Assembly: GCA_963826535.1 (NCBI GenBank)
Contig: CAWGXL010000003.1
Location: 1-51,359 of the forward strand
Reading direction: 5' to 3'
DNA length: 51,359 nt
Source of the DNA: an uncultured bacterium
GTDB taxonomy: Bacteria; Patescibacteriota; Microgenomatia; Levybacterales; UBA12049
This document shows, one piece after another, positions 2,894-43,340 of the stretch. Below the pieces are notes generated by a model that was not told where the DNA came from, did not search any database, and was given only the letters and a program-made list of their open reading frames with translations. The translations under genes were made by a program, and so were the position numbers. How positions within the stretch are numbered: the first letter of the stretch is position 1; each line of letters begins with the position of its first letter.

Positions 2894-3469
2894 TTAAAGT
2901 AGAGAATCCCACTTCAGTAGAGTTGGTAGAATTGGTAATCCTGCTGCTTCTGGCATGTCAGTATTGACTATCTGGCCTCTAACTTCTCCATCAGGATGTT
3001 CTGCAGTATGCACGTTAACGTAAGCATCACCAGAGTCCATCGCGGCAGCCAAGTCGCCTAAAGTCTTGCCTTGCATTGGGCCCTTGAGACCAGAGTCAGT
3101 CAAGTTACCTCTGAATATTATTCCATATGCAGTAACTTTGTCTTTGCTAGTCGGAGTGTTGAAAAGGTCTATAACTACTTCACCGTTTTCTCCTTCCTTG
3201 CCCATATGGATGTGTGCTGCTGAAGCATTAAACCCTCCAGTGGAATTGACTTGGACCTTATACTTGATAGTGTCGTTTTTCACTTCTGTAAACTCAGCTT
3301 CTCCAGTTGCGTCAGTCTCAACAGGGGGCACTTCATTTTGCCCACTTAATGTTGCGTCATAAGGATATTTTGCTGCATGTATCTGATCGACGAGTGATAC
3401 AGTAAGCAAAACAGACAGCGAGATAGCTAATCCTAGTATGCTTGCAAATAACAGTTTGCTCGGATTCAT
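2894..3469 (-). CDS. Secreted/anchored CHRD-domain protein
   Basis: N-terminal signal or anchor MNPSKLLFASILGLAISLSVLL. CHRD-like blocks LSGQNEVPPV, AAHIHMGKEGENGEVV and VNVHTAEHPDGEVRGQI. A paralog lies at 40368..40874. Confidence 0.7.
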   Translation of the reverse strand: MNPSKLLFASILGLAISLSVLLTVSLVDQIHAAKYPYDATLSGQNEVPPVETDATGEAEFTEVKNDTIKYKVQVNSTGGFNASAAHIHMGKEGENGEVVIDLFNTPTSKDKVTAYGIIFRGNLTDSGLKGPMQGKTLGDLAAAMDSGDAYVNVHTAEHPDGEVRGQIVNTDMPEAAGLPILPTLLKWDSLL

Positions 3470-9049: not shown

Positions 9050-10486
9050 GTGAATAATGATAAGTCTCCAACTGATTCAAATGACAAAAATATTGATACA
9101 AAACCACATCAGGATTTTGTTACTCCCAGCTTTCTGCTTTTTTTAGACAACTTAGTGGTCTCAGTAGGAGGCTGGCTATACTGGATAATAATATCAAAGC
9201 TTACTACAGCCTCAGAGATAGGCATAGCAATTACAGTCTATAGTCTAGTTATTCTAGTTATATCAATAACGCACCTAGGAATTGAATATCCGTTACTAAA
9301 AAAATCGGTCATACCGGGCTCAAGAATTCTAGGTACCTCTCTTGCAATAGAATTAGTACTCGCACTAGGATCAATTATGATTGTATTTATTGCTATTAAC
9401 ACCTTCTATGATGAATCGATAAGGCAATTTACATGGTTATCTATTACGTTACTTATTCTAATTACGATAGAAAATGTATTTCGTTTTGCCCTACTGGGAA
9501 TTTCTAATTCTAAAATTGTCCTAATAATTGATCTAATAGGCCAGGGGATAAAATTACTAATTGGATTCTTACTGGTCTATTCTTCGTTCGGGGCGTTTGG
9601 TATGCTACTCGCATATGTCCTCGAAGGTTTTTTTATCGCTTGCATTTCCTTGTATTTCGCAAAAAGGTCATTTAGTTTTAAATTGGGCAACAGTAAATAC
9701 TTTAAAGATACTCTTAAAGACGCACTTATCAATACACCGTCAAAACTGTCAAAGATGATAATTGTTACCCTAAGCATAGTACTCCTTTCATTTATGAATG
9801 TTAGTAACTCTGAGATTGGAATTTTTTATGTAGCATTAATGATTACTATAGTTGCGACCAGCTTTGCCTCAAGTATGGCGTATATGGTAATTCCGTCTTC
9901 ATCAAAGTTAATGAAAGATCTTTCTTCTAGTGGCCTCAGAATTAGTTTAAGTTTGACAGTACCAATAGTTGTAGCATTGCTTGTAGTACCAAATTCAATA
10001 CTTTCGCTGGTCGGGCCAGAGTATGAATCTGCAGCATTAGTTTTGTTCGTGCTTGCTATTGCCATCATCCCTTCAGCAATTTCAATAAACTTGATATCGA
10101 TGCTTAACAACTTGAACAAATCTAAAATGTTAATAGCAAGCGGCCTAATGCAGTTCGCGATATTTATTGTCTCTTTTTATATCTTGGTCCCACTCTATGG
10201 TACTATGGGAGCTGCAGTTTCATTTCTTTTGGCATATTCGGGTTGTTCGTTATTCTTGATAATTTTAACAGAACACGAATCTTTCAGGAACATTATTTTT
10301 GCGTGCATGTCAGTACTAGCAGGATTTACCGTTGGCTACATCTTACATATGATAATTGGTGATGAACAACGATTACTAATAGCAATTTGTTCCGTAGTTA
10401 TGTCCGTGATCGTCATTTACACAACAAAGAATATGACAATTACAGAAACAAAACTCCTGTTAAAGGAAATGCTTCAAAAGAGATAA
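9050..10486 (+). CDS. Polysaccharide/oligosaccharide flippase (MOP superfamily, Wzx-like)
   Basis: 478 aa, almost entirely hydrophobic helices (about 12-14). It sits at the head of a glycosyltransferase-rich cluster. GTG start. Confidence 0.6.
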   Translation: MNNDKSPTDSNDKNIDTKPHQDFVTPSFLLFLDNLVVSVGGWLYWIIISKLTTASEIGIAITVYSLVILVISITHLGIEYPLLKKSVIPGSRILGTSLAIELVLALGSIMIVFIAINTFYDESIRQFTWLSITLLILITIENVFRFALLGISNSKIVLIIDLIGQGIKLLIGFLLVYSSFGAFGMLLAYVLEGFFIACISLYFAKRSFSFKLGNSKYFKDTLKDALINTPSKLSKMIIVTLSIVLLSFMNVSNSEIGIFYVALMITIVATSFASSMAYMVIPSSSKLMKDLSSSGLRISLSLTVPIVVALLVVPNSILSLVGPEYESAALVLFVLAIAIIPSAISINLISMLNNLNKSKMLIASGLMQFAIFIVSFYILVPLYGTMGAAVSFLLAYSGCSLFLIILTEHESFRNIIFACMSVLAGFTVGYILHMIIGDEQRLLIAICSVVMSVIVIYTTKNMTITETKLLLKEMLQKR

Positions 10487-10631: not shown

Positions 10632-13600
10632 ATGAAATTCGAATTTAAAAAATTTTCATTCACGAGAATATTCATCAATCATATTTATTTAATCCTATTA
10701 ATTCCGTTAATTTTTATCATTCGGCTATTATTAAGCCCAGGTATAGTAATGTCTGGTGATTTTCCTGTTATTGAAACCTCTCTGTACAGTCACAAGTTCT
10801 TTTTTACGTGGGTAGACTATGGAAGCTATTTTTCGTTTGAAACACTCTCTAGGTTTCCATTTCTAACCTTGGGATACATACTACATAGCATAAACATAGG
10901 GTCTGATATTGTTTCCAAGTCCCTAGTTGTTTTGGGGTTTTTTTCGGCACTATTTTCCTTCTACGTTTCTTTTGTCCTATTTTTTAAGAACACAATAACT
11001 CGACACATTTTTACTCTTAAAACTGGAGCCATTATTGGGAGTGTTTTTTATGCATTCAATGTTTGGTCATTTCACAGGATGTATCATTGGTATCTCTGGC
11101 TCGGTTATGCAATCCTGCCGCTTTTTTTCATCTTACTCATTTTCTCATACAAAAATCCTAAAAATTGGAAGTATCCAGTGATGGCCATACTAATTTGGTC
11201 TATTGCCTCATCGACTCCCCATATGGTTATTTTTTATAGTATATTTTATTCAGTGTTAGCTATATTTTTCTTCCTTAGAAATCTAAGAAAAAAGAATGAG
11301 AGACTTATAATTATAAGACCGATACTGTTAATAATATCATTATATTTAGTTTTGAATCTATACTGGATATATCCTTATGCGTCATACATTGCAAATTCAG
11401 GGGATACATCGATTATTCCAGCCATTTTAGTAACTCAGGAGAGAACGGAATACTACAGCCAGCATAGTAGTTATTTGAATGTTCTAACATTGATACACGA
11501 TTGGTGGAAAGCTGGGATGGCAGATGTTAGGCCTCCGGATACTTCGTTATTTTATCCAGTCTGGCTGATCTCAAGTCTTGTTTTTCCAATAATGGCGATA
11601 TCATCATTATTTCTGAAAGGAAATTCGAAAAAAGTATTGATGTTATCTATGATTGGCTTTATAGGAATAATACTTTCAATGGGAACAAATGCCCCATTTA
11701 ATTTTTACACTATATTTCTTTTTAATTTACCGTTGCCTGCAATATTGCAATATCTTTTTCGTGACCCAGATAAATGGGGATTTCTGGTTGCATTTGCATT
11801 TTCATTTCTTTTAAGTGTTACAACTATTGAATTAATAAAAAAAGTTAATAAACAAAGAAATCGGAAAATATTAACCAGCGCTATTTTAGCATTTATTTTG
11901 GCCGCTTTCATAATTTATGTGTTTCCAATATACAATACTACCTCTCAATTAATAAAGCCCATAATACTTCCGTCAGATTTTGAAAAACTAGGTGATAAAC
12001 TACTGAAGTTTAATACCGAAAAAGTTTTCTATATTTTACAAGATTATATCCCAACTAAATGGAGTAATGGCGGAGACGTAAATGTACTTTTTGTACCAAC
12101 AATCCTCAACTAAACCAAGTATTGGGAATTATCTGATCTCCTCTCAAAATTATATCAATCACTTGATAAATTCCATTATATCAAACAAAACCAATAACAT
12201 AAATAATTTCATATATCCTCTGGGAACAAAATATGTGATCTTTAACAATGATTCAATTTATGATCGACACGATATAATTCTGAAAAATCTGGATCTATTA
12301 CAAGAATTGCAGAATATTGATAATGTTGGATTTTTTAAGATATTCAAATCCGTGGATGCTAATGATAATGATGATAACTATTACTTACGCATTCCTAAAC
12401 AAAATATGATACTGGCCGGAGGACTTGATTTGTTCTCCTCGTTGAACTATTTACCCTCATTTAGTACCGATAAATACCTCTCTATATTTTCTTGATCAAA
12501 ATTTAAACAAAGACGAAAAAAAGGAATCACTGAAACTTGGAGATTTTTTGGTTACATCTAAAAATACCGATGATCTGATTTTCTCTCTTATCGATAAAAA
12601 ATTTGTCATAACAACTTTTGATAAAACTAATCATCGTAATCCGTCTTCTGTATGGTCAAAGGCTGGCTCCATGGATCCATTGCACGGAGACTTTCACCCG
12701 GTACTTAAAGACGCGGGAATAGATAATTGGGATCTTGATTATGGAAGGGGGTTGGTGCTAACTGACGCAATCGGGGCTAATCTTTCAATACCGATAAAAA
12801 TTGAAAATCCGGATAAAGACATCAAAAAAGATGATACATTCCATTTATTCATGAGGTACCTGAAAAACCAAAGAGGTGGAGATATGAATATTTACCTCGA
12901 TGAAAAGTTAGCTGGTACGATTGATACCGTAGATAGGATTTCAAACAACTTTTTATGGGAAAAGTTAGCTACTGTGAACCTGACAAACGGAGAGCACATA
13001 TTAACCTTACAAAATATTCATGGGTTTAATTCTGTTAACCTTTTTGCACTTATTCCAGATGAGGAATTAAAGATGTTAAGAACACAAACAGCAAATTTAC
13101 TAAACAACAAGATCCAAGTTATTAATTTACTGGAAGCCGAAACAAGCTTCCACAATAATAAGGGTAAGGAAACAGGAGCATCAAATTTATCATATCAAGT
13201 TGATAACACTGTGAGTAATGAAAGCAATCAAAATGGCACAATGAGATCATTCAAAGGTCAATTCCGTGTTCATGCAAATGCTGATCTTGCTGCTCTAGAG
13301 TTCTTTGCAACCAAGAATAATGCTACAAATAGTTATTATTCTATAAAAGATATCACAATTAAATCTCCTGATCATGCTTATGATGTTTTTACATCCGATT
13401 TTGAGAGAACAAAGAGAATACTTCCCAAACCTCATGAATCTAGTCATTTGATTTTCATAAATGAGAATAAAGATTTACTCTCCGCTTCCATAGCCAAGAA
13501 CGGTACAATAGCAGGTAATGGGAGTCTGAGGGTAGATGTGAAACAAGGTAATTTCTCTTACTGGGGAGTTATATCAACGGATTTTATTCCATCTAATGAA

Positions 13601-15427
13601 ATTACTTATTACAATTTAACCCTGGATGTTTCTGCAAAAGATGCTAATCAGCTCCATTCAAAGGTAATTTATTATGATGCAAACAACAAAGAGATTAGTC
13701 AGGATACTGTATTTGATGGTAGGGATGGCACATTTGAACATAGCTATGAAAAGGTAATTTCAGTACCCCTTGGAGCAAAATATCTTAAATTGCAAATGTG
13801 GATTAGTCCTAATATAAGTAAACCTAGTAGCGATTTACTAGACAATGTGAAATTAGCGGAATTAAGGGAAAAATTAGTGCCATCAGATTGGATTGTGAAT
13901 CAAAAAGATCTACTTTTCGCTTATATAGATACGAGCAGTGTAATTTCGGGCAATGGAAGTCTAAGGGTAGATGTGAAACAAGGTAATTCCTTTTATCGTG
14001 GTGTTATAACAACAGATTTTATTCCAGCTAATGAGATTACTCATGTACAATTTAACCCTGGATGTTTCTGCAAAAGATGCTAATCAACTTCATTCAAAGG
14101 TAATTTATTATGATTCAAATAAAAAAGAGATTGATGACGATACTGTATTTGATGGTAGGGATGGCACATTTGAACATAGCTGATGAAAAGGTAATTTCAG
14201 TACCCCTTGGAGCAAAATATCTTAAATTGCAAATGTGGGTTACTCCTAATACAAACAAACCTAGTAGCTATTTACTAGATAATGTGGTATTACGAAATAT
14301 CGTAGAAAAAACATTGACTCCGGGAATTGTTTTTAAAGATAAAATTACTAGACTTCAAAATGTAACATCTAAAGCTCCTGAGGTTTTTGTATTAATGATT
14401 AATAATACTGATAATAACTTCACTGGTGAGAATCATGATTTGAATAAAACACTTACTATGTCGAATTCAACTAATGTCATGAAATTAGTAACGAAAGCAT
14501 TTCCAGTGAATTCTAATTCTGTGTATAACTATACGTTCAATCTCGAAACAAGGAATATTGATTTTCTTTTTGGTGTCGTGTCGTTTAGAAATTCAAGTGA
14601 TGTTACTGTGAACTCGAATATGTACGGTAATAACGCAAGTAATGGGAGTGTTCTTTCTCTGTCTCCAGGGTCAGAAGTAATTACTAACCTGAACATTGTG
14701 AAACCATCCAATTATGCGATAGCCGTAAAAACGAAGAATTGCGACAGTTGTACTTTTCTGAAGATTACTTTAGAAAGAGAAAATGATGATATCAATGACG
14801 TTCATAATATTACTACAAGTCTTTATCCCAATTAAGAATACAACTTCTGCAATGCGGTGGTCTTATTCAAATAATTTTTATCTCAAACAAGGAGTGTATC
14901 AGCTTAGAATTTATTCTGATTCACAAACAGATCTTGATACCGCTGTGGTATACTCAACTGACAAAGTAAATAATATACCAAGCACTTCAAGGCATACTTC
15001 GACGCTACAGGATCTCTTTAATACCGGTCTGAGTTCTCCCCCCGCGTACATTTCAGAATATAAAAAGATAGATCCTACAAAATTCATTCTCTACATAAGC
15101 AACGCCACACGGCCTTATACTATATCTTTTGCCGAAGCGTATGATCCACTTTGGATTGCCCAAGTAAACAAGACAGATGTACATGAAACCAATGCTGATA
15201 ACAATCTTTTTAAAGTGAACAGTGTTCCATTATATTCAGTCGTAAATGGTTTTCATGTTAACAAAACTGGAAATTATAGTTTGATCATTGAATATCGTCC
15301 TCAATCGTGGTTTATTCAAGGGGGAATAATAAGTTTAGTTGCATTAACGGTCCTCGCTGTCATATTCTTCATTCATAAATATTATTTATATGTAAAAAGG
15401 TTTATGAATTATCTGCGTCTTCATTAG
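10632..15427 (+). pseudogene. Giant (~1,600 codon) polytopic membrane protein, YfhO/GT-C-like, with a duplicated CBM-like jelly-roll module and a C-terminal TM anchor; five net +1 frame breaks
   Basis: Fragments are 10632..12113, 12082..12495, 12548..14083, 14110..14835 and 14783..15427 (frames 0,1,2,[0],1,2). It is colinear with 35735..40095. Shared blocks include GDFPVIETS after TM1, FYAFNVWSFHRMYHWYLWLGYAILPLFF, WSIASSTPHM, FRDPDKWGF, FMRYLKNQRGG, and SFAEAYDPLWIAQ...IIEYRPQSWF followed by a terminal TM. Confidence 0.6.
13469..14340 (+). repeat. In-frame 435-bp (145-codon) tandem duplication of the CBM-like module inside the giant gene
   Basis: GGTAATGGGAGTCTGAGGGTAGATGTGAAACAAGG begins at 13514 and GGCAATGGAAGTCTAAGGGTAGATGTGAAACAAGG at 13949. 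Long identical stretches follow, for example GATGGTAGGGATGGCACATTTGAACATAGCT and GTAATTTCAGTACCCCTTGGAGCAAAATATCTTAAATTGCAAATGTGG. Copy 2 has extra G bases at 14045 and 14182 relative to copy 1. Confidence 0.9.
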
Positions 15428-15560: not shown

Positions 15561-17404
15561 CTAGGACTCTTTAGTAACTATTCTATATATCGTGCCTTGA
15601 AATTTATCATGGTAAAAATCTTTGAGTGACGCAATATAGAGATAACCGTCGGGTCCGACTTGCATATCTGTAATTCCTCCAAATCCCTTTGCAAAAATTA
15701 TACCTTCATACTCTTTGGGAGTATCTGCTACTTTATCAGCTAGGGGACCATCCAGCAGTAGCTCGGTCCTATTCTCATTTAATTCAAAATGGTAAATTGT
15801 TCCATTGTTTACGTCTGCAACAAACATATCGCTCCTGTAACTCTTCCCGAATTTATCGGAATTAAAAAACTTTATAGCAGTGGGACCAACGGTATTATTC
15901 CAGGAAAATTCTGGATCACTATATTTCCCTTTACCATCGAAATCAACTAAATCATTTAGTCCGGTGTCCGCATTTGACATACCATTCGCAACATCAGCAC
16001 CGCTGTTAAATCCAGGTTCAACTAAGTTTATTTCATCGCCATGGTCTGGACCATTTTCTGTATCCCAAAGGATACCCGTTAGAGGATCAAAATCCATTCC
16101 ATAGCTGTTGCGTATTCCATAAGCGTAATATAGATTGGATGGATAGGTATCTCCTATGATGCCTTTTCCAATCGGTTTACCATCTTGTGTTAACCTAAGT
16201 ATACCGGCTCTTCCGTCAGGTTCTCTGGCATCATTATAATTCTGCGCTTTTGTTTTACCACCTTCATATCTATGACCATCTAGATTTCCAATTACGAGAT
16301 ACAATGCATTGTCTGGACCAGTTATCAGTTCTCCTCCATGATGCATTTCGTTTATGAACTTGGTTGGTTTTGGAGCCGGGATACTCATAAGAAGTCGAGG
16401 TTCAACGAGTTTATTTCCTTCGAGCTTGTATCTGTAAAGATGATCTCCTTCGCGATCATAACCAAGGGTGCGATTTAGTATTTTAGCTTCTTCCGAATTA
16501 TCCACATCCGAATTATATTTTAATGGAGACTTCATTAAAGTACAGAAACACATAGGTTGAGCCATTTTGGTTATGGGTTGTGGTAATGCCAATGAGCCCG
16601 TCTTGAAAGTGAGTGTTGACATCTATTAGTGGATCTTTCAGTAACTGCCCATTTACGATGCGGTCCACTTTCCCACTTTCTCTTTCGAGTACCAGAAGGT
16701 CATTTGGACCCAGAAATGCCATGTTCGTAGAATCGTTTACCCCTGTAAACACGCGTTCAATTGTAAGTTGAGGTACGGAATCATTACTGTTGTTACTGAC
16801 AGTCAGACTTGGTCCACTTCCTTCTATTGTTATGTTATCTAGGAGATAGACTCGCATTTATCCCAAGACTTTGTCTAATCAACATCTGGAGCTTTATATA
16901 TTTTGTTCCAATTGGAGGTAAAAGAGAATTCGTAAATTTTTCATTGAAAATACCATCTCTTCCAGCAAAAATAAAATCCCAATGTGTTTCATTTTTATTT
17001 GCATCATAATAAATTACCTTTGAATGAAGTTGATTAGCATCTTTTGCAGAAACATCCATGGTGAAATTGTATTCAATGACGTCATTTGCTGGAATAAAAT
17101 CTGTTGATATGACACTCCATGAAGAATTAACTGCCTCATTGAGAGTAGCGGCTGGCTTTATATCCGCTCTCAAACTACCATTACCAGAAATAGGCTCATT
17201 CGTTCCATTTGAAATGGAGAGAGTGTCATTTGCATAATTTATCCAGTCTCCTTGTTCCAAGGTCATAATCCAGAGCAACCCTTTGTCCATTATCCTGCTT
17301 TCATCATTATAGCTTTCTAGAGCAATCCCTTCTCTGATAATAACTTGTGTTGCAAGAAAAATAATGATAAAAGCTATGACGAGGGTTACTTTGTGAACAA
17401 TCAA
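15561..17404 (-). pseudogene. Membrane-anchored CBM-like module fused to a PQQ-dependent sugar dehydrogenase (sGDH/GSDH-like) beta-propeller; two net +1 frame breaks
   Basis: Fragments are 16835..17404 (TM anchor VTLVIAFIIIFLATQVII plus GNGSLRADIK...DVSAKDANQLHSKVIYYDANK), 16513..16857 (NMAFLGPNDLLVLERESGKVDRIVNG, GLIGI) and 15561..16622 (HHGGELITGPDNALYLVIGN, GILRLTQDGKPIG, YAYGIRNSYGMDFDPLTGILWDTENGPDHGDEINLVEPGFNSG). Confidence 0.8.
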
Positions 17405-21834: not shown

Positions 21835-23322
21835 TTGCACTCTCCAACCCACTTAGCTATTATCATTATTGTTTCTGCATTTTTAATCACTTTAGGCAAT
21901 ATATCCACTCTCGATTATTTTGGAAAGGGCAATAGAATCTTAGATAATGGGTTACAGGCGATATACGCTTCAGACGGGAATGAACGAATTGATAATGACA
22001 TTGATAATGACACTCTAAAATCAGACTCGCTAGTTCAGGATAATGTTATTTTTTCAAAGAACTTTGAAGGGAAACCTGAGATATTTCAAAATGAAAGCAC
22101 TCCTTTAACAAATGAAAGTAAAAGTGTGAACAAAGTGAATGGATCTAATTTCAAAGTAGAGACTGTTCTTGGCGGCATAAAAACACCCTCCAATATGGCG
22201 TTTATAGGACCTGATGATATACTATTTTTAGAAAAAAATGATGGTACTGTAAATAGAATCGTAAACGGCGTAAAGTTAGAAAATCCGTTATTGGATCTAA
22301 ACGTAGTACACAGTGATGGGCTGTTAGGGATAGCAATCTCACAAAATAAGACAGGTCCTACAAACGTATTCTTGTATCTAACTGAATCACCAAAAAAATA
22401 TCATGCTGACATAAATGACGATGATGAGGTACGGAAGGTTGATAAAAAATTGGGCAAAAGCCGAGAGTGTAATTGTCTTTATAGGTACGAATTAGATGAA
22501 AACAAGTTAATAAATCCAAAACTACTTCTTAAGCTTCCAGCAGGTCCTGGAGGTCAGCACCATGGGGGGGAGATAATGATAGGGCCAGACAGTAATATTT
22601 ACGCAATGGTAGGCAATATCGAAGGATGGATGAAAAATTCTACTAGTACCAAGGCTCAAAATTTTGAAAATGGTACTGAACCCGACGGAAGGGCTGGAAT
22701 ACTCCGTATTACACAAGATGGTAAACCGATTGGAAATGGTATAATAGGAGATAATTATCCATCCAATCTGTATTACACTTATGGACTACGCAATGGGTTT
22801 GGAATGGACTTTGATCCTGTAACCGGTAAGCTTTGGGATACAGAAAACGGTCCTGATCATGGTGATGAAATCAATTTAGTTGAGCCTGGGTTCAACAGTG
22901 GTTCCGATGACGTATATGGAATGTCATTTTTGGATAATGCATTTGATTCGAATAAATTGGCTACGTTCAACGGAGCAGGAAAGTATAGTGATCCTGAATT
23001 TGTATGGAATGTATCTGTCGGTCCTACAGCTATAAAGTTTCTTAATTCGACAAATTATGGAAAAGAATTCGAAAATGATGGCTTTGTAGGTGACATAAAT
23101 AATGGGAATTTGTACCATTTTGATCTGAATAATGCGAGAGATGCGTTACTGCTTAACGGCACCCTTACCGATAAAGTAGCAAGTTCCAAAGAAGAACTTG
23201 ACGATGTCATATTTATGAATGGATTTGTCGGAATAACTGATATACAAGTAAGTCCAGATGGGTATTTGTACATACTTGGCAATAATTCTATTTATAAAAT
23301 ATTACCCAATAAAGTAAATTAA
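21835..23322 (+). CDS. Membrane-anchored PQQ-dependent sugar dehydrogenase (sGDH-like) beta-propeller, paralog 2
   Basis: TM anchor LAIIIIVSAFLITLG, then an Asn/Asp-rich linker with IFSKNFEG. Propeller blocks are NMAFIGPDDILFLEKNDGTVNRIVNG, GLLGIA, HHGGEIMIGPDSNIYAMVGN and GMDFDPVTGKLWDTENGPDHGDEINLVEPGFNSG. The start is uncertain: it is either TTG at 21835, or ATG at 21789 in the neighbouring frame, which would need another +1 break. Confidence 0.8.
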   Translation: MHSPTHLAIIIIVSAFLITLGNISTLDYFGKGNRILDNGLQAIYASDGNERIDNDIDNDTLKSDSLVQDNVIFSKNFEGKPEIFQNESTPLTNESKSVNKVNGSNFKVETVLGGIKTPSNMAFIGPDDILFLEKNDGTVNRIVNGVKLENPLLDLNVVHSDGLLGIAISQNKTGPTNVFLYLTESPKKYHADINDDDEVRKVDKKLGKSRECNCLYRYELDENKLINPKLLLKLPAGPGGQHHGGEIMIGPDSNIYAMVGNIEGWMKNSTSTKAQNFENGTEPDGRAGILRITQDGKPIGNGIIGDNYPSNLYYTYGLRNGFGMDFDPVTGKLWDTENGPDHGDEINLVEPGFNSGSDDVYGMSFLDNAFDSNKLATFNGAGKYSDPEFVWNVSVGPTAIKFLNSTNYGKEFENDGFVGDINNGNLYHFDLNNARDALLLNGTLTDKVASSKEELDDVIFMNGFVGITDIQVSPDGYLYILGNNSIYKILPNKVN

Positions 23323-27331: not shown

Positions 27332-28855
27332 ATGACTATGACCAACGCTTGGAATATGCTAGCACTTATGAGATTTATTTTCATCACAATTTTCTTTACC
27401 TTTTTTGTAAGCATTGTTGATGCCTACTCATATTCCTATTTTGACCAGGTTAACGAAGAAATCCCGTTACTAACTGATACTGTCATGAAAAGGATTGGTG
27501 AGAATATTGATAAGTTCGTGGAAGAAATTAAGACTGAACTTGCAACGGTACCTTTTTCAAATCAGAATAACACCACCATATTTTCAGAGAATTTTGAAGG
27601 CCAGGTTAAGATAATTGAAAATAGAATTGTTCCTGCTATTAAAGATCCTCAATTAAAAATAGAGACCGTCACAACATCACTTGATTTTCCTACCAGCATG
27701 GCTTTCTTGGCGCCAGATGATATTCTGGTCTTGGAAAAGAACAAAGGAACAATACGGAGAATTATGAATGGAACTCTGTTACCTCATCATATTCTTGATG
27801 TCAATGTAAGTGCATTGGGTGATAGAGGAATGCTTGGGATTGCAGTACCACAGAAGTTAGATTCAAACAATAATATTTTTGTTTATTTTACAGAAAATTT
27901 ATCGCAAAATAATACTAGTTCTGTGGAAAAGATTAGTAATAAAAAAGATACAAACTCAACAAGAGAACATGTTAGCAACCGCTTATATAGATACAAATTA
28001 ATGAATGACAGACTAGTGAGCCCGAAGCTGCTGATTGATATCCCAGCAGAGATTTACGGGCAGGAAAACTTCGGAATACACAACGGAGGAAAGATCAGAA
28101 TTGGTCCTGATAATAACGTGTATTTGATCGTTGGAGATATTGGAGGTTTTGCAACTGAAACGCAAAACGTTCCTAACATAATTCCACTAAATGCGACAAG
28201 CGTTATATTGCGGGTTTCCCAAGATGGAACATCTATCGGCGAGATTCTTGATAGTAAAGTTCCTATCAGTAAATTTTATGCCTACGGTATACGCAATAGT
28301 TTTGGAATGGACTTTGATCCTGTAACCGGTAAGCTTTGGGATACAGAAAACGGTCCCGATCATGGTGATGAAATCAATTTGGTTGAACCTGGCTTCAACA
28401 GTGGTTGGTCTAAAATAATGGGTCTAACTCCGGTTGAGACTGATCTAGATCTAGTACGGTATGGAGGAAAGGGCAAATATAGCAACCCAGAGTTTATGTG
28501 GGAAGTTCCCGTGGCTCCTACTGCTCTTAAGTTCTTTGACTCTAGCAAATTTGGAGAAGTATATAGGAATGATATGTTTGTGGGTGACTTCAATAACGGG
28601 ACCCTCTATCATTTTGACCTAGACGATAATAGAACTAATCTTGATCTTGAAGGTCAACTAGAAGACCGAATAGCAAATTCTAGTGCTGAGCTCGGCGATG
28701 TCACATTCGGAACAGGATTTGGGAGTATAACTGATATTGAAGTGGGACCAGATGGTTATCTGTACGTAGTATCATTACGTAGCGAAAAAGGCACTCCCTA
28801 CCCCTTTAATGAAAATGCGATTGGAAGTATTTTCAGGATACGTCCTTCCGAATAA
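27332..28855 (+). CDS. Membrane-anchored PQQ-dependent sugar dehydrogenase (sGDH-like) beta-propeller, paralog 3
   Basis: TM anchor FIFITIFFTFFVSIV and a linker with IFSENFEG. Propeller blocks are SMAFLAPDDILVLEKNKGTIRRIMNG, GMLGIA, IHNGGKIRIGPDNNVYLIVGD and GMDFDPVTGKLWDTENGPDHGDEINLVEPGFNSG. Intact 507-aa ORF. Confidence 0.85.
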   Translation: MTMTNAWNMLALMRFIFITIFFTFFVSIVDAYSYSYFDQVNEEIPLLTDTVMKRIGENIDKFVEEIKTELATVPFSNQNNTTIFSENFEGQVKIIENRIVPAIKDPQLKIETVTTSLDFPTSMAFLAPDDILVLEKNKGTIRRIMNGTLLPHHILDVNVSALGDRGMLGIAVPQKLDSNNNIFVYFTENLSQNNTSSVEKISNKKDTNSTREHVSNRLYRYKLMNDRLVSPKLLIDIPAEIYGQENFGIHNGGKIRIGPDNNVYLIVGDIGGFATETQNVPNIIPLNATSVILRVSQDGTSIGEILDSKVPISKFYAYGIRNSFGMDFDPVTGKLWDTENGPDHGDEINLVEPGFNSGWSKIMGLTPVETDLDLVRYGGKGKYSNPEFMWEVPVAPTALKFFDSSKFGEVYRNDMFVGDFNNGTLYHFDLDDNRTNLDLEGQLEDRIANSSAELGDVTFGTGFGSITDIEVGPDGYLYVVSLRSEKGTPYPFNENAIGSIFRIRPSE

Positions 28856-28890: not shown

Positions 28891-31041
28891 CTAGACGCAA
28901 TTATTTTCTCCTTTCAAACTTACATGATATATCTCATTTCCATTATCTACAGTGAAACCGGGATATTTACCACCACCAATAACGTATATTTTATTGCTTA
29001 TTGATTCAGCTGCCAATCCATGCTTACCGCTAGGCATAGACTCCGCACGCGTCCAGGAATTCACCAGGGGCTCGTATTTCTCATTTTCAGAATAAGTATA
29101 ATCGGTCCCAGAAGGGTAGTTCTTCGTCTCGCCTCCAAGGACATATATGCTACCATTGACTGTGGCAGCAGCGGCACCGCTTCTGCTAGTAGGTATCGAT
29201 TTCAAATTAGACCATTTATTTTGAGCAGGATCGTACATTTCATTTGTATTGCTGTTATTAAAATTGTGATCAGCATATGAAAGCCCATATCTGCCGCCAA
29301 TTATGTATAATTTTTCATCCACCACCGCAGAAACATGATGATGCCTCGCAGTTGGCATCGGTGCTTTTTCTGCCCATGAATCTGAAGTCGGGTCGTACGC
29401 CTCGTTTGTGGTAACTTGACCATAAGGATGATATGCTCCTGTTATGTGCGATGGATCTTCATCGCCCCCAACTACATACATTATGCCGTTAACAAATTCC
29501 GCAGTTAAAGCTCCTCTTGCAGTTGGCATTTCTTTCCGTTCTTCCCATTTCCCCATAACAGGATCATAAACAAACAGTCTATTACTTGGTTTGCTCTCTG
29601 CATCAAAACCTCCTACTACGTATAATTTATTATTATACGTGGCAGCTGCAAGGTGATCAAGCTTGACTGGAAGATATGTTGTGTTACTCCATTCGTTTTT
29701 GGTTGAATCGTATACCTCCACTATATTTGTAGTCTTATCCGAGTAACCTCCAATAATGAATATTTTATTACCAATTGTGGAAGAAGCCATTTCTATTCTC
29801 TCAGTTGGCATACTTTTCCCGGTCGACCAGCATGAACTGATATTGGAAGATGATCTTGTCGTAAGGTCTTGCTGAGTTTTACCAGTAGACTCTTCCATTG
29901 GTGACGGTTTGTAACCCACTATTCGATAATTGAATCTGTCAACTACTAAGAGATTGCCAGATAAATCCACAGTCGCATGTTCAGGTCCATACAGCTTACC
30001 GTCACATGGGAGAGGACCAGACATTTTTGTTTTGTCTGATCTTACCCCCTCTTCTATAGCACAGGGTCCGGATCCCACACTAGTTATGAAATTGCCATCA
30101 TTGTCAAACTTTACCACTCGAGAATTCTCTTCTCCATCTACTTGCCATACGTTATCTGACGAGTCGATAAACAGATGTTCCAAATGAGCAGAAAACTGAC
30201 CCGGACCATCGCCTGCTTCTCCCCATTGATTTATAAAATCGCCGTCACTGTCAAACTTTTGGATTCGAGGTTGTACCTCATTTACAAACACGTTGCCGCT
30301 TGAATCTAAATCAATGCCATGAGGGTGGATAAATTCACCGGGTGCAGTCCCATTCTTACCCCATTCTTTAATCAGTTCAAAACTATTTGAAATCTTTACC
30401 ACCCGATTGTTACCCGTATCAGCAATATACATAACACCTGACACGGGATCGACAGTGAGTGCCTCCGGAGCATTGAAGGTATTATTAGATATACCAACTG
30501 TGTCATGCATGCGGAGAAATGTGCCGTTGGTATCGAAAATTTGTATTCTATTGTTGAATTTATCTACCACGTATACATTATCAAAGGAATCAATCCGAAT
30601 CTCATACGGATGGTTAAACTCCCCTGGTCCGATGCCACTGTTGCCCCATTTCTTAATAAAAGTGCCATTATTGTTAAATTTTTGAATATCATTGCGATCC
30701 CTGTCACTCACATAGACGTTGCCAACTGAGTCGACAACGATACCATGTGGGCTAAGAAATTGACCGTCTCCTCGACCAAAAGATCCCCATTTTAGAAAAT
30801 ATGAATAATTTTTGATTTCTTGTCCCTGTGCCAGTATATTATTTTCCTCATTCATAACACCGAGCAAGGTAACTATGGCAAGACTCAAAAAACAACACAA
30901 GAATAATAATAATTCACTTCCCAAGCCACTTTTGGAATGCATTTTACTCTTAATAAGCGAGTTATATAAAAGATTTTTTAAGGGATGACTCTTAAAACAA
31001 CTAATTGTTTGAAGGGGCCATATTATTGAGTAATTCGCCAT
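28891..31041 (-). CDS. Membrane-anchored double beta-propeller protein: six NHL repeats followed by six Kelch repeats
   Basis: TM LLLFLCCFLSLAIVTLLG; an alternative ATG at 30942 would begin MHSKSG. NHL units include GQFLSPHGIVVDSVGNVYVSDRDRNDIQKF and GEFNHPYEIRIDSFDNVYVVDKFNNRIQIF. A Ser/Thr linker follows. Kelch units include IGNKIFIIGGY...VEVYDSTKNEW, YNNKLYVVGGF...FVYDPVMGKWEE and VDEKLYIIGGR. Intact 716-aa ORF. Confidence 0.8.
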   Translation of the reverse strand: MANYSIIWPLQTISCFKSHPLKNLLYNSLIKSKMHSKSGLGSELLLFLCCFLSLAIVTLLGVMNEENNILAQGQEIKNYSYFLKWGSFGRGDGQFLSPHGIVVDSVGNVYVSDRDRNDIQKFNNNGTFIKKWGNSGIGPGEFNHPYEIRIDSFDNVYVVDKFNNRIQIFDTNGTFLRMHDTVGISNNTFNAPEALTVDPVSGVMYIADTGNNRVVKISNSFELIKEWGKNGTAPGEFIHPHGIDLDSSGNVFVNEVQPRIQKFDSDGDFINQWGEAGDGPGQFSAHLEHLFIDSSDNVWQVDGEENSRVVKFDNDGNFITSVGSGPCAIEEGVRSDKTKMSGPLPCDGKLYGPEHATVDLSGNLLVVDRFNYRIVGYKPSPMEESTGKTQQDLTTRSSSNISSCWSTGKSMPTERIEMASSTIGNKIFIIGGYSDKTTNIVEVYDSTKNEWSNTTYLPVKLDHLAAATYNNKLYVVGGFDAESKPSNRLFVYDPVMGKWEERKEMPTARGALTAEFVNGIMYVVGGDEDPSHITGAYHPYGQVTTNEAYDPTSDSWAEKAPMPTARHHHVSAVVDEKLYIIGGRYGLSYADHNFNNSNTNEMYDPAQNKWSNLKSIPTSRSGAAAATVNGSIYVLGGETKNYPSGTDYTYSENEKYEPLVNSWTRAESMPSGKHGLAAESISNKIYVIGGGKYPGFTVDNGNEIYHVSLKGENNCV

Positions 31042-35734: not shown

Positions 35735-38700
35735 GTGCCTAGAATTAAAATGAGTCTTGTCTCAAAGACTCTTAAAAAGTTAAATGTAATTCTCAGTCAA
35801 CATACGTATCTCCTACTAATAGTTCCACTCTTTCTTATTGCGTATCCTATAGCAAAATCCGGAATTCCAATTACGGGAGATTTTCCTTATTCTGATACTT
35901 CTGACTATGCAATTGATAGGCTCTGGTTGTGGGTTGAAAAGGGAAGCATGGACGGACTTGAATCCTTATCAAGATTTCCGATAATCGCGTTATGGTATCT
36001 GCTTAGTTTTGTTAATATGGATTCAGAATTGGCAACTAAGATAATGGTTGTTCTCGGTTTCTTATTGGCATCTTTTTCATTTTATATTGCATTTAATTTA
36101 TTATTCAAAAATAGGGATATTTATCCAAACTGTACGGCTGAAAATATCGGCAGTACTCGGCAGTATATTTTACGCCTATAATATCTGGTCATTCAACAGG
36201 ATTCATCATTGGTATTTATGGATAGGTTATGCCATATTGCCATTATTTTTTATCTCGATTTACCTTTCCTTTAAAAATCCCAAAAAGTGGAAATATGTTA
36301 TATCTTCTATTTTCTTGTGGTCTATTGCTTCGACGACACCACATATGATTCTGTATTATGGAATCATATTTCTTTGTACATTCTTAGGTTTTATTTTACA
36401 CGATTTGAATAAGGGACGTAGACAGATAATTCAGATGGTAACACCGTTCTTGTTAGTTATGTTGTTCTATTCACTAGTAAATATGTATTGGATATATCCT
36501 TATTTACTGTCTTCCCAAGCCCAATTACCCATCGTTAACTACGAAGTTACCGAAGAAAGTCTAAAACTTTTAAGTAGAGAAGGTAGCTTTTTAGATACCA
36601 TTAGGATTTTGTCCTATTGGCTAAATTCTATCGTTCAAAACCCTCTTGAGGATTCACCTCTATCTTTTTTTTGGATCTCTCTCAGCTTCGTGGTTCCAGT
36701 CATAGCATTTTCTGCTCTTTTACTAAAAAAATTAATAAAATACGCTATAATCTTTTCAGGGATTGCGTTAATTGGAATATTTTTAGCGATGGGAACTGAA
36801 TCCCCATTTGAATATCATCATCTATTGCTTACTTCTCCTTTGTTATCAAAATTTGTATGGCTATTCAGAGAAGCAGATAAATGGTCATTTTTAATAACCT
36901 ATGCATATTCATTTTTACTTGGTCTAGTTAGCTACAAGGTTTTATCAGTTACCATAAAGAATAAACAGTATAATAATAAAAAAACCATTTTAGCAGGTTC
37001 TTTTATATTTTTCTTAATACTTTCCATTTGCGTAACTTCCTATCCATTCTACGAACATCACATGAATGTACTGAAACCAACAATATTGCCTTCAGAGTTT
37101 GATAGGTTAAATTCCTATTTGGCAAGTATTGATGACGATAAAATTTTTTTTATGCCATATCCTATGGAAGAAACACAATGGGATAAGCTGGGGAGAGTGG
37201 GAAGTATTTATCAGCTTAGTGCAATAAAACCCAGTATAGAAGCTAGTCAATATAATTTAATTTCACGTAACTACTACAATTACTTTGTAAATTCGATTCT
37301 TGATAATCGAACTAATAATATTGGCAATCTTATTTACCCATTAGGTACATCATATTTAGTTTTTCACAACGACACATGGAATAAAATACTAAAAACAAAC
37401 GAGCCAGTTAATATTCAACTTTTGGAAAAAATGTACAGTTTACCAGATCTGAAAAACATTAAGAATATTGGATTTTATAATGTATTCCAAATTAGTAACA
37501 CCTACAATGATACTAATAATGACTCTAACACTAGGATTGCACAGGCTAATATTCCTTCTCAGATTGTCGCTACAACAGGAGGATTGGACATTTACAGCTC
37601 ATTAAGCAAACTTTCTTCATTCAATACACTTCAGTCATCATTAATATTTACAGGCGATATTCGCTCAAGAAGCGCAAGTAATCCTATGTTAAGTATAGAT
37701 AAATTAATTTCAGATCGGTCAATGTTGAATGATGAATTTGTCCTTTCTTTGGTTGATGACAAATTTATTACAGCGCCGTTTGTCGAAACCAATAGGTATG
37801 ACCCATCAAAGGTATGGTCCAAGTCTAGCACTAGGGATCCCGATCATGCAGAGTTTCACCCATTTTTGAGAAATCTCGGGATAGAGAATTGGGAATTTGA
37901 TTATGGAAAAGGACTAGTAATGACTAAGGCGATGGGAGAAAAAATGTCGGTTCCAATAGAAATTGAAGAGCAGAATAATAGCAGCGAAATCGATGCTCAA
38001 TATGACATATTTATGAGGTATCTGAAGAATCAAAGAGGTGGACTAATCCGAACTTATCTCGATGATAAATTTATGAGTGAAGTTGATACCTATGATAGGA
38101 TCTCAAATAAGTTTGTATGGCAAAAGTTAGGTTCGCTAAACTTAACTGAAGGTAAACATATAATGACCTTAGAGAATATCGCGGGGTTTAATGCGGTCAA
38201 CATCTTATCGTTTGTGCCTGTCGATGAATTGAACAAATTAAAAACAGAAACAGCTCATCTATTTGCAAATAGGACAGGGGTGATTTATTATTTGGAGGCT
38301 GAATCAAACTTTTACAATACTAAGGGTGCAGATACTGGTTCTATTCATTATTTATTTGAGGACGATAAATCCACTCGTTATTATGATAGAGCGAATGAGA
38401 TGCAAACTAAGATGATTAACGGTAGTTTCACAGTCCCTTCAAATACAGACCTTATGACTTTACAATTTATACACAGGCAAAATGATTCAAATTCTAATTT
38501 ATTTAACGATTTAGAAATTAGTCCCTCGTATGAAAAATACAGTGTATTTGAATCTGATTTTGAGACTACAAAAAACTCTATACCACTTGCGAAATTAAGA
38601 CAGCTTGACTGGATGAATTTCGATAAAGATGTCGTATCGACTTCCTTGGAAAGAACTAGTCCTATACATGGAAACAATACATTAAGAGTAGATATTAGAG

Positions 38701-40095
38701 GAAGTGAAAAAGTTGGATGGAATATAATATCTACTGATTATATACCAATTAGTGACAATAGATATTATAACGCAACCTTGGATATTTCCGCAAAAGATGT
38801 AAAGGATCTTCATTCAAGGGTTTTATATTTTGATATAATGAATGAAGAAATGAGGGGAGCCGTAGATTTTATCTTTGAAGGGAAGGATGGCACATTTCAG
38901 AATACATTTAGCTCTAGCATTCTGCCCCCAACAGGCGCAAAATATCTTACGCTTCAAATCTTGACAAAGTCGGATAATACCAGGCCTAGTAGTTTTCTTT
39001 TGAATAAAGTGAAACTAGAAGAAATTGTTATGCCCGTGCCAGCCTTTAAAACCAAATTTAACGACAATTTAAAAGAAGATAAAGAAAAAGAAGGACAGGA
39101 ACCAGTGAATGGTAAACTTGTTGAGTACTTGGGAACAGAACAGAAAATTAACTCTACTCATTTTATGCTAACAACAAAAGCGTTTCCAGTAGACTGAAAA
39201 TCATGTATATAATTATGGTGCTACTATAAATGGTGGAAAGGTGCCTACTCGATCGGTTATTGCAGATTTTAGGACTTCTAAAGATGTCATTGAAAATTCT
39301 ACCAGGCATGGTAATAATGCAAGTGATGGACGGGTTCTGTCGATGAATCCTGGTTCTGAGATAGAAACGACACTTGAAATACTTAGACCGTCAAATTATT
39401 CAATTGGGCTTAGGGCAAATACATGTGAAAGCTGCACCTTTTTAAGAATAGAATTAGAGGGTAACAATTATCATGAGAACTTTACTGTCTTTACCAATAG
39501 AAGTAATGGTATAGCTAAACATGATACTACTGGACTACAATGGTTAAATTCTAATACCACATTTCTTAAACAAGGAACATATAAATTTAAAATCCATTCT
39601 GACTCCCAAGCAGATCTAGATTCTGTTGTTATATATCCAAGTGACAACCGTTATAGTTCTGCCAGTAATGGAGCTGTAGATATATTTAATCACGATTCAT
39701 CGCCTGCACAGATCTCAGGATACGAAAAAATTAATCCCACCAAGCATATTCTTATAATAAAAAATGCAACAAGGCCCTATATTATTTCATTTGCCGAGTC
39801 GTACGATGCTCTATGGACGGCCTACTCTAATAATGACAACAATGAAAAAAATAATTATTTCAAGACAAATAGCATCCCGCTTTATGGAATAACCAACGGC
39901 TTTTACGTAAACAAGACCGGTGATTATGAATTAATAATAGAATACGAACCGCAGAATTGGTTTGTTCTAGGTTCTATAATAAGCATTTCCAGCATAATAC
40001 TATTATTAGCAATAACTATTTTACTTGTTAAGAAAAAATATCTTCGTGTGACCTATAGAAAATACCGAAAAATATTAAAACAGGGTAAAAATTGA
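35735..40095 (+). pseudogene. Giant (~1,450 codon) polytopic membrane protein, YfhO/GT-C-like, with one CBM-like module and a C-terminal TM anchor; two net +1 frame breaks (near 36125 and 39190)
   Basis: Fragments are 35735..36181, 36048..39197 and 39241..40095 (frames 2,0,1). The likely ATG start is at 35750. Blocks shared with 10632..15427 include GDFPYSDTS, FYAYNIWSFNRIHHWYLWIGYAILPLFF, WSIASTTPHM, FREADKWSF, FMRYLKNQRGG, GNNTLRVDIRG...DISAKDVKDLHSRVLYFD, and SFAESYDALWTAY...IIEYEPQNWF followed by a terminal TM. Confidence 0.6.
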
Positions 40096-42092: not shown

Positions 42093-43340
42093 TTGTTTTC
42101 AAATCGGAGCAATGCGGAGTTGTCAAATTCAAATATCGTAACATTCTCAATAATTATTCCGACATATAACGAGTCCGAGAATATTTTGCGACTCATTAGT
42201 GAGATTGAAAAAAATTTACCATCATCTGAGTTTACTGAAATTGTCATAGTAGATGATAATTCTCCAGATGGAACAGGAAAACTCGTAGAGAATTACATAA
42301 ATCAACAAGATAATAAGCATCAAAAGCAGGATCAGGCCAAGACTACCAATTGCAGGGTAAAAATAGTTCATCGAACTGGAAAAAATGGACTGATACCTGC
42401 AATTATTGATGGAGTTAAACAATCCACAGGTAGGAATGTAATTGTTATGGATGCTGATTTTTCACATCCTCCAGAGGTAATACCCAAAATGATGCAGGAA
42501 TCAAAAATGAATCCAAATTCTATCATTATTGGATCAAGGTACGTTGAAGGCGGAAAAGTCATTGGCTGGCCAAAGAAAAGAAAGATATTGAGTTCGGGTG
42601 CCTCATTCCTAGCACGCGTCGGATTAAACGTAAGACGTGTTAAGGATCCTATGTCAGGGTTATTTGCACTCCCCCGTGAATTAATAGAAAATATATCAAT
42701 TGACACTAAAGGTTACAAGATACTGTTAGAGATTTTGGTAAAAAATAAAGAAATACCAACAAAGGAAATTCCGTTTACATTCATTGATAGACGGTCTGGA
42801 AAGAGTAAAATGGATAATGGTGTAATACTGAACTACGCTAAAGCAATATGGCAATTATACAGACATGGTCAGAAATCAGGTCATGTAACTATCGATGTAA
42901 AGGTAGATGAGAGATCTGTCCTTTTCCTTTCGAAGGTAGGACGCTACTACACAGTCGGCATTTCTGGACTAGTAATTAACTATCTGGTCTCATTTCTTCT
43001 GGCTAATGATGTGGCCAATTCTATTCGATTGTTGTCCAACGTGTGGTACCTCGAAGCTTCCATTATCGGTGCTGCAATCTCTTCAACATCCAACTTCTTT
43101 TTCAACAAGTACTGGACTTTTGAGGACACGCGATTCGAAGTGAGATCTACTGCAAAACAGTATGCCTCGTTTATTGGCATGAGCGCAATTGGATTGATAA
43201 TTCAAATTGCAATACTGTATTTCATGGTTGAGAATTTTGTTCCATATCGTATATCTTTGATATTGGCAATCGCCGTCGCTACAACAATTAACTTCATACT
43301 CAATAAGAAATTTACATTCAAGGAAAAAGTTTGGGCATAA
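42093..43340 (+). CDS. Dolichyl/polyprenyl-phosphate sugar synthase (Dpm1/GtrB-type GT2) fused to a C-terminal GtrA-like four-TM domain
   Basis: GT2 part: FSIIIPTYNESENI, IVIVDDNSPDGTG, VMDADFSHPP, IIGSRYVEGGKVIGWP, VKDPMSGLFAL. GtrA part: YYTVGISGLVINYLVSFLL, SNFFFNKYWTFED, INFILNKKFTFKE. TTG start. Confidence 0.85.
   Translation: MFSNRSNAELSNSNIVTFSIIIPTYNESENILRLISEIEKNLPSSEFTEIVIVDDNSPDGTGKLVENYINQQDNKHQKQDQAKTTNCRVKIVHRTGKNGLIPAIIDGVKQSTGRNVIVMDADFSHPPEVIPKMMQESKMNPNSIIIGSRYVEGGKVIGWPKKRKILSSGASFLARVGLNVRRVKDPMSGLFALPRELIENISIDTKGYKILLEILVKNKEIPTKEIPFTFIDRRSGKSKMDNGVILNYAKAIWQLYRHGQKSGHVTIDVKVDERSVLFLSKVGRYYTVGISGLVINYLVSFLLANDVANSIRLLSNVWYLEASIIGAAISSTSNFFFNKYWTFEDTRFEVRSTAKQYASFIGMSAIGLIIQIAILYFMVENFVPYRISLILAIAVATTINFILNKKFTFKEKVWA

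Follow-up and report, generated by a model that had tools for sequence, protein, structure and literature searches.

A pair of giant, AftD-related membrane proteins with a predicted GT-C fold in an envelope glycosylation island

The DNA analysed here, called the window throughout, is the whole 51 359-nucleotide stretch of contig CAWGXL010000003.1 (assembly GCA_963826535.1). Two of its loci, designated A and B, each correspond to one very large membrane protein whose reading frame is interrupted: in the list of open reading frames (ORFs) as given, A is made of five ORFs and B of three, all on the + strand. The products were rebuilt by tblastn with intact homologs combined with a frameshift-aware dynamic-programming alignment, and the resulting conceptual proteins (1596 amino acids for A and 1452 for B) contain no in-frame stop. 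They are colinear, with 43% identity over 1409 aligned residues (BLASTP E = 0.0), and A differs from B in having one further module of 145 amino acids. Both consist of a polytopic N-terminal domain (N-domain) of ~437 amino acids, an ectodomain of ~1000–1150 amino acids and one final transmembrane (TM) helix. The paralogy and this three-part architecture had been put forward in a preliminary description made from the sequence, and both were borne out by the rebuilt products.

The motifs which that description quoted are all found at the places it gave. In the N-domains they are GDFPVIETS (A) or GDFPYSDTS (B), FYA.N.WSF.R..HWYLW.GYAILPLFF, WSIAS.TPHM and FR.xDKW, and in the ectodomains FMRYLKNQRGG, DRISN.F.W.KL, SFAE.YD.LW.A and NGF.VNKTG.Y.LIIEY.PQ.WF. 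Intact orthologs are 1452–1619 amino acids long for the A type (P0055, P0067 and P0050) and about 1455–1460 amino acids long for the B type (P0002 and P0023 among them), and pairs of A- and B-type paralogs on a single contig recur in other assemblies. The coordinates of the two loci, of their predicted domains and of the relevant neighbouring features are collected in Table 1.

Table 1. Positions in the window of loci A and B, their predicted domains and associated features (CBM, carbohydrate-binding module; EL1, first extracytoplasmic loop; DPMS, dolichol-monophosphate-mannose synthase)
Feature	Position	Strand	Basis or remark
Wzx/MOP-type flippase-like polytopic protein, 146 nucleotides upstream of A	9050..10486	+	homolog names, synteny
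Locus A, A-type giant GT-C gene	10632..15427	+	1596-amino-acid conceptual product after removal of 5 single-base insertions
A, predicted GT-C transmembrane core, ~11 TM helices, EL1 with GDFP loop; blocks NVWSFHR..HWYLW, TPHM, FRDPDKW	10632..11942	+	AlphaFold2, Foldseek, hydropathy
A, codon of Asp43 in the GDFP loop of EL1, predicted catalytic or metal-binding Asp	10758..10760	+	conservation; counterpart of the essential D41 of AftD
A, mixed alpha/beta soluble domain after the last core TM helix	11943..12780	+	boundaries approximate, by homology to the B model
A, CBM35/CBM6-like beta-sandwich (FMRYLKNQRGG ... DRISN.F.W.KL ... N.G.N.VN)	12781..13069	+	Pfam on homologs, weak 3zm8 profile match
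A, jelly-roll module copy 1, 145 amino acids	13430..13864	+	fold of the B model; CBM22/CBM16 matches at TMt ~0.7
A, second jelly-roll copy, with two extra single G residues compared with copy 1	13865..14301	+	comparison of the copies
A, C-terminal beta-domain (SFAEAYDPLW ... NGFHVNKTG ... IEYRPQSWF), final TM helix (15320-15373) and basic tail	15041..15427	+	block conserved in distant relatives
Jelly-roll module, third copy in the window, N-terminal in a beta-propeller protein of the GSDH (glucose/sorbosone dehydrogenase-like) type (15561-17404)	16850..17269	-	host gene also interrupted by +1 insertions
Locus B, B-type giant GT-C gene	35735..40095	+	1452-amino-acid conceptual product after removal of 2 single-base insertions
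B, predicted GT-C transmembrane core	35735..37052	+	GDFP-loop Asp codon at 35879-35881
B, ectodomain and final TM helix	37053..40095	+	AlphaFold2 model; starts with alpha/beta domain
B, CBM35-like domain	about 37914-38231	+	
B, beta-sandwich	38277-38560	+	
B, jelly-roll module	38586-39026	+	
B, further beta-sandwiches	about 39130-39650	+	
B, C-terminal beta-domain, then TM helix	39703-39963, then 39970-40029	+	
Putative dolichol-phosphate-hexose synthase, GT2 with GtrA/DPMS TM domain, 2 kb downstream of B	42093..43340	+	Pfam, 5mlz match, synteny

A GT-C fold had been proposed for the N-domain, and modelling agreed with this proposal. AlphaFold2, run on residues 1–493 of A with an alignment of 80 homologs, gave a model with pLDDT 87 and pTM 0.91. 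When this model was compared to the PDB with Foldseek, the matches with TM-scores of 0.34–0.46 (probability 0.82–1.0) were GT-C enzymes only, namely human STT3A and STT3B, canine STT3, yeast Stt3, PglB, AglB and ArnT, whereas the interleaved matches to transporters of the major facilitator superfamily, at ~0.12, were noise. A transporter fold was accordingly rejected, and we regard the modelled N-domain as being of the GT-C fold. Hydropathy and the secondary structure of the model agreed with a count of ~11 TM helices, and the loops predicted to be cytoplasmic carry positive charges. Short helices (residues 53–58, 66–72 and 75–86) lie in EL1, the juxtamembrane stretch between TM1 and TM2, and the conserved FRDPDKW loop is located between TM9 and TM10.

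The acidic loop following TM1, which the preliminary description had called conserved, does contain an almost unvarying residue. D43 of A (GDFP loop) is conserved in at least 90% of the 80 homologs mentioned above and is invariant both in a set of 16 N-domain sequences including the most distant hits and in 45 relatives that are more distant still. A second acidic residue is found five positions past this Asp (E48 in A, with a matching Asp in B). N143, R149, H152, R377 and K381, which are polar residues of extracytoplasmic loops, are also conserved across the very wide family.

For the ectodomain, residues 410–1451 of frame-corrected B were modelled with AlphaFold2 (pLDDT 85, pTM 0.85). The order of elements in the model is: TM helix, mixed alpha/beta domain, FMRYLKNQRGG beta-sandwich, helix, second beta-sandwich, 145-amino-acid jelly-roll, further beta-sandwiches, C-terminal beta-domain and long final helix. 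The top Foldseek match of this model is the mycobacterial glycosyltransferase AftD (6w98_A; E = 8.7e-16, 1099 alignment columns), the very enzyme that had been offered as comparator; CBM22 and CBM16 modules are matched as well (TMt ~0.7). The presence of CBM-like beta-sandwiches in the ectodomain, also anticipated, is thus indicated both by Foldseek and by Pfam on homologs: the FMRYLKNQ module is recognised as CBM_35_2 in homolog P0093 (E = 1.2e-5) and as CBM_35 in three distant members. Profile searches of the full-length alignment against PDB sequences gave a weak CBM35 match only (3zm8, E = 0.14).

One jelly-roll module in B and two in A had been announced, and this is the number found. In profile searches of the module alignment against PDB chains only noise was obtained, with no sequence match; since this is so, it is the modelled fold that makes the module appear CBM4/9/16/22-like. 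The two tandem copies of A are 79–93% identical in DNA in their well-aligned parts, which suggests a recent tandem duplication. Among homologs the number of tandem copies varies from 1 to 5 (P0015, P0030 and P0181). The third copy in the window, carried by a GSDH protein which is predicted to be secreted, shows 51% identity to copy 1 of A, and in homolog P0056 a GSDH domain is fused to the C-terminus of the giant GT-C protein. From these sequence relationships, the jelly-roll module and the GSDH proteins seem to be functionally linked to the giant GT-C enzymes.

Homolog searches retrieved 115 proteins, most of ~1450–1750 amino acids and nearly all without a recorded Pfam domain; those named by their source are called 'hypothetical protein', and the ones with a named organism are from Nitrososphaeraceae. 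A hidden Markov model of the N-domain, run against 1.84 billion cluster representatives (50% identity), found 5979 proteins at E <= 1e-3, 527 of them at E <= 1e-30; of the 150 matches listed, the complete ones are mostly ~900–1400 amino acids long. In a scan of GTDB species genomes, archaeal relatives were found in Nitrososphaeraceae, Ca. Nitrosocosmicus, Ca. Nitrosothermus, Micrarchaeota, Thermoplasmatota, Aenigmatarchaeota, Bathyarchaeia, Hydrothermarchaeum, Methanocaldococcaceae and Pacearchaeota, and further relatives in Chloroflexi and Candidate Phyla Radiation (CPR) bacteria. The closest named ones come from a Nitrososphaeraceae archaeon (41% identity) and a Ca. Nitrosocosmicus metagenome-assembled genome. 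Beside distant family members, large proteins of 906–1158 amino acids that have no Pfam match were also noticed (L024 14397-17510; L025 2901-6377 and 20240-22960); they may be further paralogs of the family.

The 45 distant relatives were those found by the N-domain profile at E <= 1e-46, and they were scanned with Pfam at E <= 1e-3. Four elements persist in their consensus: the loops GD..FP and FRDP..W, a CBM35-like block, and a C-terminal block (E.YDP.W ... NGF.I..TG ... Y.PQ..F) with its TM helix. GT-C_AftD was matched by 7 of the 45 (best E = 1e-14), DUF6541 by three and PTPS_related by one; CBM_35, CBM_11 and CBM_4_9 were matched too. PTPS_related is listed in the Pfam GT-C clan CL0111 (PMC7801869). 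The sequence-profile link of A and B to this clan is indirect, passing through the distant relatives. A weak NCBIfam match of A to the protein MmpA, whose mycobacterial ortholog is described below, is a further link to AftD. The assignment to YfhO/GtrC-type enzymes made in the preliminary description was not supported: YfhO, PMT_2 and STT3 match no piece of A or B in the window at E <= 1 and none of the 45 distant members at E <= 1e-3, and YfhO finds no match at E <= 0.1 in seven homologs that are weak hits or bear Pfam domains. The motif WWDxG is absent from A and B, and WWD[YWFN]G is absent from all 248 related proteins.

AftD (PF11847, 6W98) is the closest known relative of A and B, and the relation goes beyond analogy. 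Both kinds of protein have a GT-C core of ~11 TM helices with an Asp early in EL1 (essential in AftD), a mixed alpha/beta soluble domain, several CBM-like beta-sandwiches and a return to the membrane, at a similar size (~1400 amino acids for AftD); besides, the ectodomain model finds its best Foldseek match in AftD, and the Pfam family of AftD matches distant members. AftD has eleven TM helices before its soluble region. Its EL1 begins with a stretch that includes two essential residues, K39 and D41 (bioRxiv 10.1101/2019.12.22.885152), and the paper on its structure found homologs in Actinobacteria only. In the AftD loop between TM9 and TM10, R357 is conserved and K361 essential; residues of the FRDPDKW loop of A may be their equivalents. 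The two nevertheless differ in several respects. A and B end in a single TM helix with a short basic tail and do not have the TM13–16 bundle by which AftD binds an acyl carrier protein, so that their layout (~11 TM helices, CBM-rich ectodomain, one TM helix) is that of AftD minus the last four helices. The window proteins give no direct match to PF11847 (GT-C_AftD; E <= 1), their jelly-roll module is repeatable, from one to five copies, and their family occurs in archaea, Chloroflexi and CPR bacteria. Finally, the likely donor is a dolichol-phosphate (Dol-P) hexose, as judged from a neighbouring synthase gene, and not the decaprenyl-phospho-arabinose of AftD. The earlier opinion that such proteins match no described system is right at the level of annotation ('hypothetical protein', nearly no Pfam); they can nevertheless be recognised as relatives of AftD and of the three-component systems for extracytoplasmic glycosylation. 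We consider the giant GT-C family to be new, unnamed and widespread: a known kind of enzyme made distinct by its single C-terminal anchor and its repeatable jelly-roll.

The neighbouring genes provide the clue to the donor. The protein encoded at 42093-43340 matches the dolichol-monophosphate-mannose synthase of Pyrococcus furiosus (5mlz) over its full length (E = 6.4e-55), and a DPMS homolog is found within ~2–5 kb of B-type orthologs in L022 (with its near-duplicate L023) and in L026. The protein encoded at 9050-10486 itself has no Pfam match, and its flippase alignment retrieves nothing from PDB sequences; the name borne by its homologs is 'O-antigen/teichoic acid export membrane protein', PF13440 is present in some of them, and an ortholog of 477–482 amino acids is encoded directly upstream of A-type genes in L027 and L028. 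A candidate synthase, a candidate flippase and the GT-C genes are thus all present in the window, and both pairings are kept in other contigs. The gene of a very distant homolog (P0112) belongs to a large cluster for polysaccharides, which also comprises a Wzx gene, numerous GT2 and GT4 genes and a PMT-type GT-C.

The window as a whole is a glycosylation and envelope island, with genes for GT2 and GT4 enzymes, methyltransferases, a PGI/PMI protein, a GFO/IDH/MocA oxidoreductase, four GSDH beta-propeller proteins and Kelch/NHL, RTX and CHRD proteins. The GSDH paralogs at 15561-16622 (-), 21835-23322 (+) and 27332-28855 (+) are interspersed with the glycosyltransferase genes, and GSDH paralogs are conserved in the syntenic islands L022, L026, L027 and L028. 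Several island genes encode proteins that are probably secreted or exposed at the surface. One, at 28891-31041 (-), is a double beta-propeller of 716 amino acids combining NHL and Kelch; another, at 34993-35685 (-), is an RTX calcium-binding repeat protein whose gene lies immediately upstream of B but on the other strand; and two have a CHRD domain, at 2894-3469 (-) and 40368-40874 (-).

Similar divisions of labour have been described in archaea and bacteria. In Haloferax volcanii, AglD, AglR and AglS are a Dol-P-mannose synthase, a Wzx-like flippase factor and a Dol-P-mannose-dependent mannosyltransferase, respectively (PMC3871713). These three roles are matched here by the genes at 42093-43340 and 9050-10486 and by a predicted polytopic extracytoplasmic transferase. 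AglS is much smaller than A and B and is not known to have a CBM-rich ectodomain. In the three-component systems of bacteria, the sugar is first attached to polyprenyl phosphate by a GT-A enzyme, then moved by a flippase and finally transferred outside the membrane by a GT-C enzyme (PMC8035078). CsbB/GtcA/YfhO and GtrA/GtrB/GtrC follow the same synthase–flippase–GT-C logic as the gene set of the window; they differ from it in that the A/B family has no YfhO or PMT_2 profile match and in that the synthase of the window carries the GtrA-like TM domain as part of the same protein, an arrangement shared with archaeal DPMS. The several CBM-like modules of A and B are a further difference from CsbB/GtcA/YfhO, as is their size, nearly twice that of YfhO.

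Since the conserved neighbours are a DPMS homolog (near B) and a Wzx-like flippase (upstream of A), we propose that A and B would most likely add a Dol-P-linked sugar to a cell-surface glycan outside the cell. A Dol-P-sugar, with mannose or another hexose as the most likely sugar, would be made on the cytoplasmic face by the DPMS homolog, and the lipid-linked sugar would then be flipped over the membrane, possibly with the help of the Wzx-like protein. Where membrane and ectodomain meet, the GT-C active site would pass the sugar to a surface glycan, which could be the glycan of an S-layer glycoprotein or an exopolysaccharide built by GT2 and GT4 enzymes of the island. The CBM-like modules may hold the polymeric acceptor, as proposed for AftD. 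Taken together, A and B are in our judgement probably paralogous, very large (~1450–1600 amino acids) GT-C-fold glycosyltransferases of an unnamed family with mycobacterial AftD as closest characterised relative, which would transfer sugar from Dol-P to a surface glycan outside the membrane and whose frame breaks are insertion errors.

A number of observations weigh against this interpretation. The E-values of the N-domain in Foldseek are weak (9e-3 to 0.3), and AftD is absent among the 50 N-domain matches listed. Pfam and NCBIfam scans of all eight ORF pieces of A and B found no GT-C family above threshold, and profile searches against PDB sequences retrieved no GT-C enzyme, the N-domain alignment finding nothing at all. 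A more distant ortholog (P0082) has no DPMS gene in the 4–10 kb of flank examined. Donor, acceptor and activity of A and B are all inferred, and the Wzx-like gene would equally fit a lipid-pyrophosphate-oligosaccharide donor. Finally, A and B are disrupted in the sequence as given, and proof that the disruptions are artefacts would need the reads.

The main competing explanation keeps the GT-C fold and supposes that A and B transfer or polymerise en bloc a dolichol-pyrophosphate-linked oligosaccharide, in the manner of an oligosaccharyltransferase, a Wzy polymerase or a WaaL ligase, after the repeat unit has been flipped by the Wzx-like protein. This is unlikely in our estimation, even if it is the best placed of the alternatives. 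It would account for the conserved Wzx/MOP-type gene directly upstream of A-type genes and for the fact that the best structural matches of the N-domain are oligosaccharyltransferases, and several cytoplasmic GT2 and GT4 enzymes of the island could build a lipid-linked oligosaccharide. However, WWDxG is found in 0 of 248 family proteins and no Pfam STT3 match was obtained, so that membership of the oligosaccharyltransferases themselves was rejected; the ectodomain composition of A and B is also unrelated to that of STT3, AglB and PglB. The sequence links lead instead to AftD, a user of a polyprenyl-monophosphate sugar, and a DPMS-type synthase is a conserved neighbour of B-type genes. As to the Wzx-like neighbour, it does not require a pyrophosphate-linked donor, since the Wzx-like AglR of Haloferax is implicated in the delivery of Dol-P-mannose.

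The frame breaks bear on whether A and B are genes in working order. Single +1 shifts were located near 12081, 12469, 14040, 14168 and 14833 in A and near 36131 and 39192 in B. These are 7 of the 14 frame disruptions of the window; the other 7 lie in a GSDH-plus-module gene (two) and in genes for GFO/IDH/MocA, GT2, GT4, DUF362 and PGI/PMI proteins, at about 16846, 16530, 19043, 19778, 21178 and 25137, with one more between 31644 and 31684. All 14 are +1 single-base insertions, and no deletion, nonsense mutation or larger lesion is found among them. Relative to copy 1, the second copy of the jelly-roll module of A has exactly two inserted bases, both of them G; elsewhere the inserted base is T or C and mostly lies outside homopolymer runs. 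Downstream of each break in A and B the frame stays open and the similarity to orthologs is as high as upstream. Orthologs of the broken genes are intact in independent contigs, including those for the GFO/IDH/MocA protein (343 amino acids) and GT2 (273 amino acids).

Two explanations for these insertions were considered and rejected. Programmed +1 frameshifting is not compatible with the seven sites of A and B, which have no motif in common and whose shift points lie upstream of the zero-frame stops at variable distances; unrelated neighbouring genes, moreover, carry the same type of insertion. A sequencing error of the homopolymer type does not fit either, the inserted bases being mixed (G, T and C) and mostly outside homopolymer runs. 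That A and B are genuine pseudogenes of the source organism, with frameshifts that are real mutations, would agree with the count of seven disruptions in two genes as given and with the many further broken genes of the same island. We nevertheless find gene decay improbable, and contig errors most likely, because the spectrum consists of insertions only, because sequence after every break is open and as ortholog-like as before it and because the orthologs on other contigs are all intact. The pattern looks like a systematic insertion artefact of the contig.

Two further observations on gene structure were made in this context. The ORF pair 23556-24668/24580-25044 was examined as another possible split gene and rejected, the DUF2334 gene being intact and the second ORF lying antisense to a GT4 gene. 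In GCA_016307145.1 (L026 19659-20635), the annotation splits the gene of DPMS type that neighbours the B-type ortholog into two, one for the GT2 part and one for the GtrA_DPMS_TM part, and this suggests a frameshift or split in that assembly as well.

It could also be supposed that A and B derive from GT-C enzymes and are no longer catalytic, acting as a membrane scaffold, as a lipid or glycan handler like MmpA, or as a surface adhesin that makes use of its CBMs. The lone lead of the NCBIfam scan was indeed a weak match to MmpA (E = 4.4e-5, residues 149–480 of A), which is the sole direct match of a window piece to a curated family below E = 0.01 and concerns a protein with no demonstrated transferase activity; binding-type modules also dominate the ectodomain. 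Rv0226c, the mycobacterial ortholog of MmpA, is reported to be homologous in part to the first 668 residues of AftD, which hold 11 of its 16 TM helices (PMC8698533). The conservation over a very wide family of the Asp of EL1 and of N143, R149, H152, R377 and K381, together with the conserved pairing with a Dol-P-sugar synthase, makes a non-catalytic role slightly less credible still than gene decay. Least probable of all, to the point of being hardly tenable, is that A and B belong to the YfhO family and decorate a teichoic-acid-like polymer with single sugars as YfhO/GtrC-type enzymes do: the architecture is shared (polytopic GT-C core, large extracytoplasmic part, terminal TM helix) and being paired with a GT2 synthase of polyprenyl-phosphate sugars is reminiscent of CsbB/YfhO (PMC8035078), but the YfhO profile is silent on the window fragments, the seven homologs and the 45 distant members, the distant members match GT-C_AftD, DUF6541 and PTPS_related instead, and the best structural match of the ectodomain is AftD.

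If A and B are extracytoplasmic glycosyltransferases related to AftD, they constitute a new family within a familiar class of enzymes and imply no new mechanism. A testable function would be provided for a large family, prominent in soil ammonia-oxidising archaea, whose source-named members are 'hypothetical protein'. To our knowledge, the biosynthesis of the cell envelope and of exopolysaccharides in these archaea is poorly known, and the two GT-C paralogs, with the DPMS homolog and the Wzx-like protein, would form a delimited set of genes through which glycan assembly outside the cytoplasm could be studied in Nitrososphaeraceae. The fusion of a GT-C core with CBMs, which was reported for Actinobacteria only, would extend to archaea and to several bacterial phyla. 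We suggest, as a tentative picture to which we give nearly even chances, that AftD-like GT-C enzymes are no peculiarity of Actinobacteria but the part so far visible of a large unnamed family that spans archaea, Chloroflexi and CPR bacteria with ~6000 clusters at 50% identity. The conserved A/B pair of soil ammonia-oxidising archaea would build or decorate a surface polysaccharide outside the cell together with the DPMS-type synthase and the Wzx-like flippase, and the jelly-roll, present in one to five copies and also found on GSDH proteins, may set which polymer is bound or how far the enzyme reaches from the membrane.

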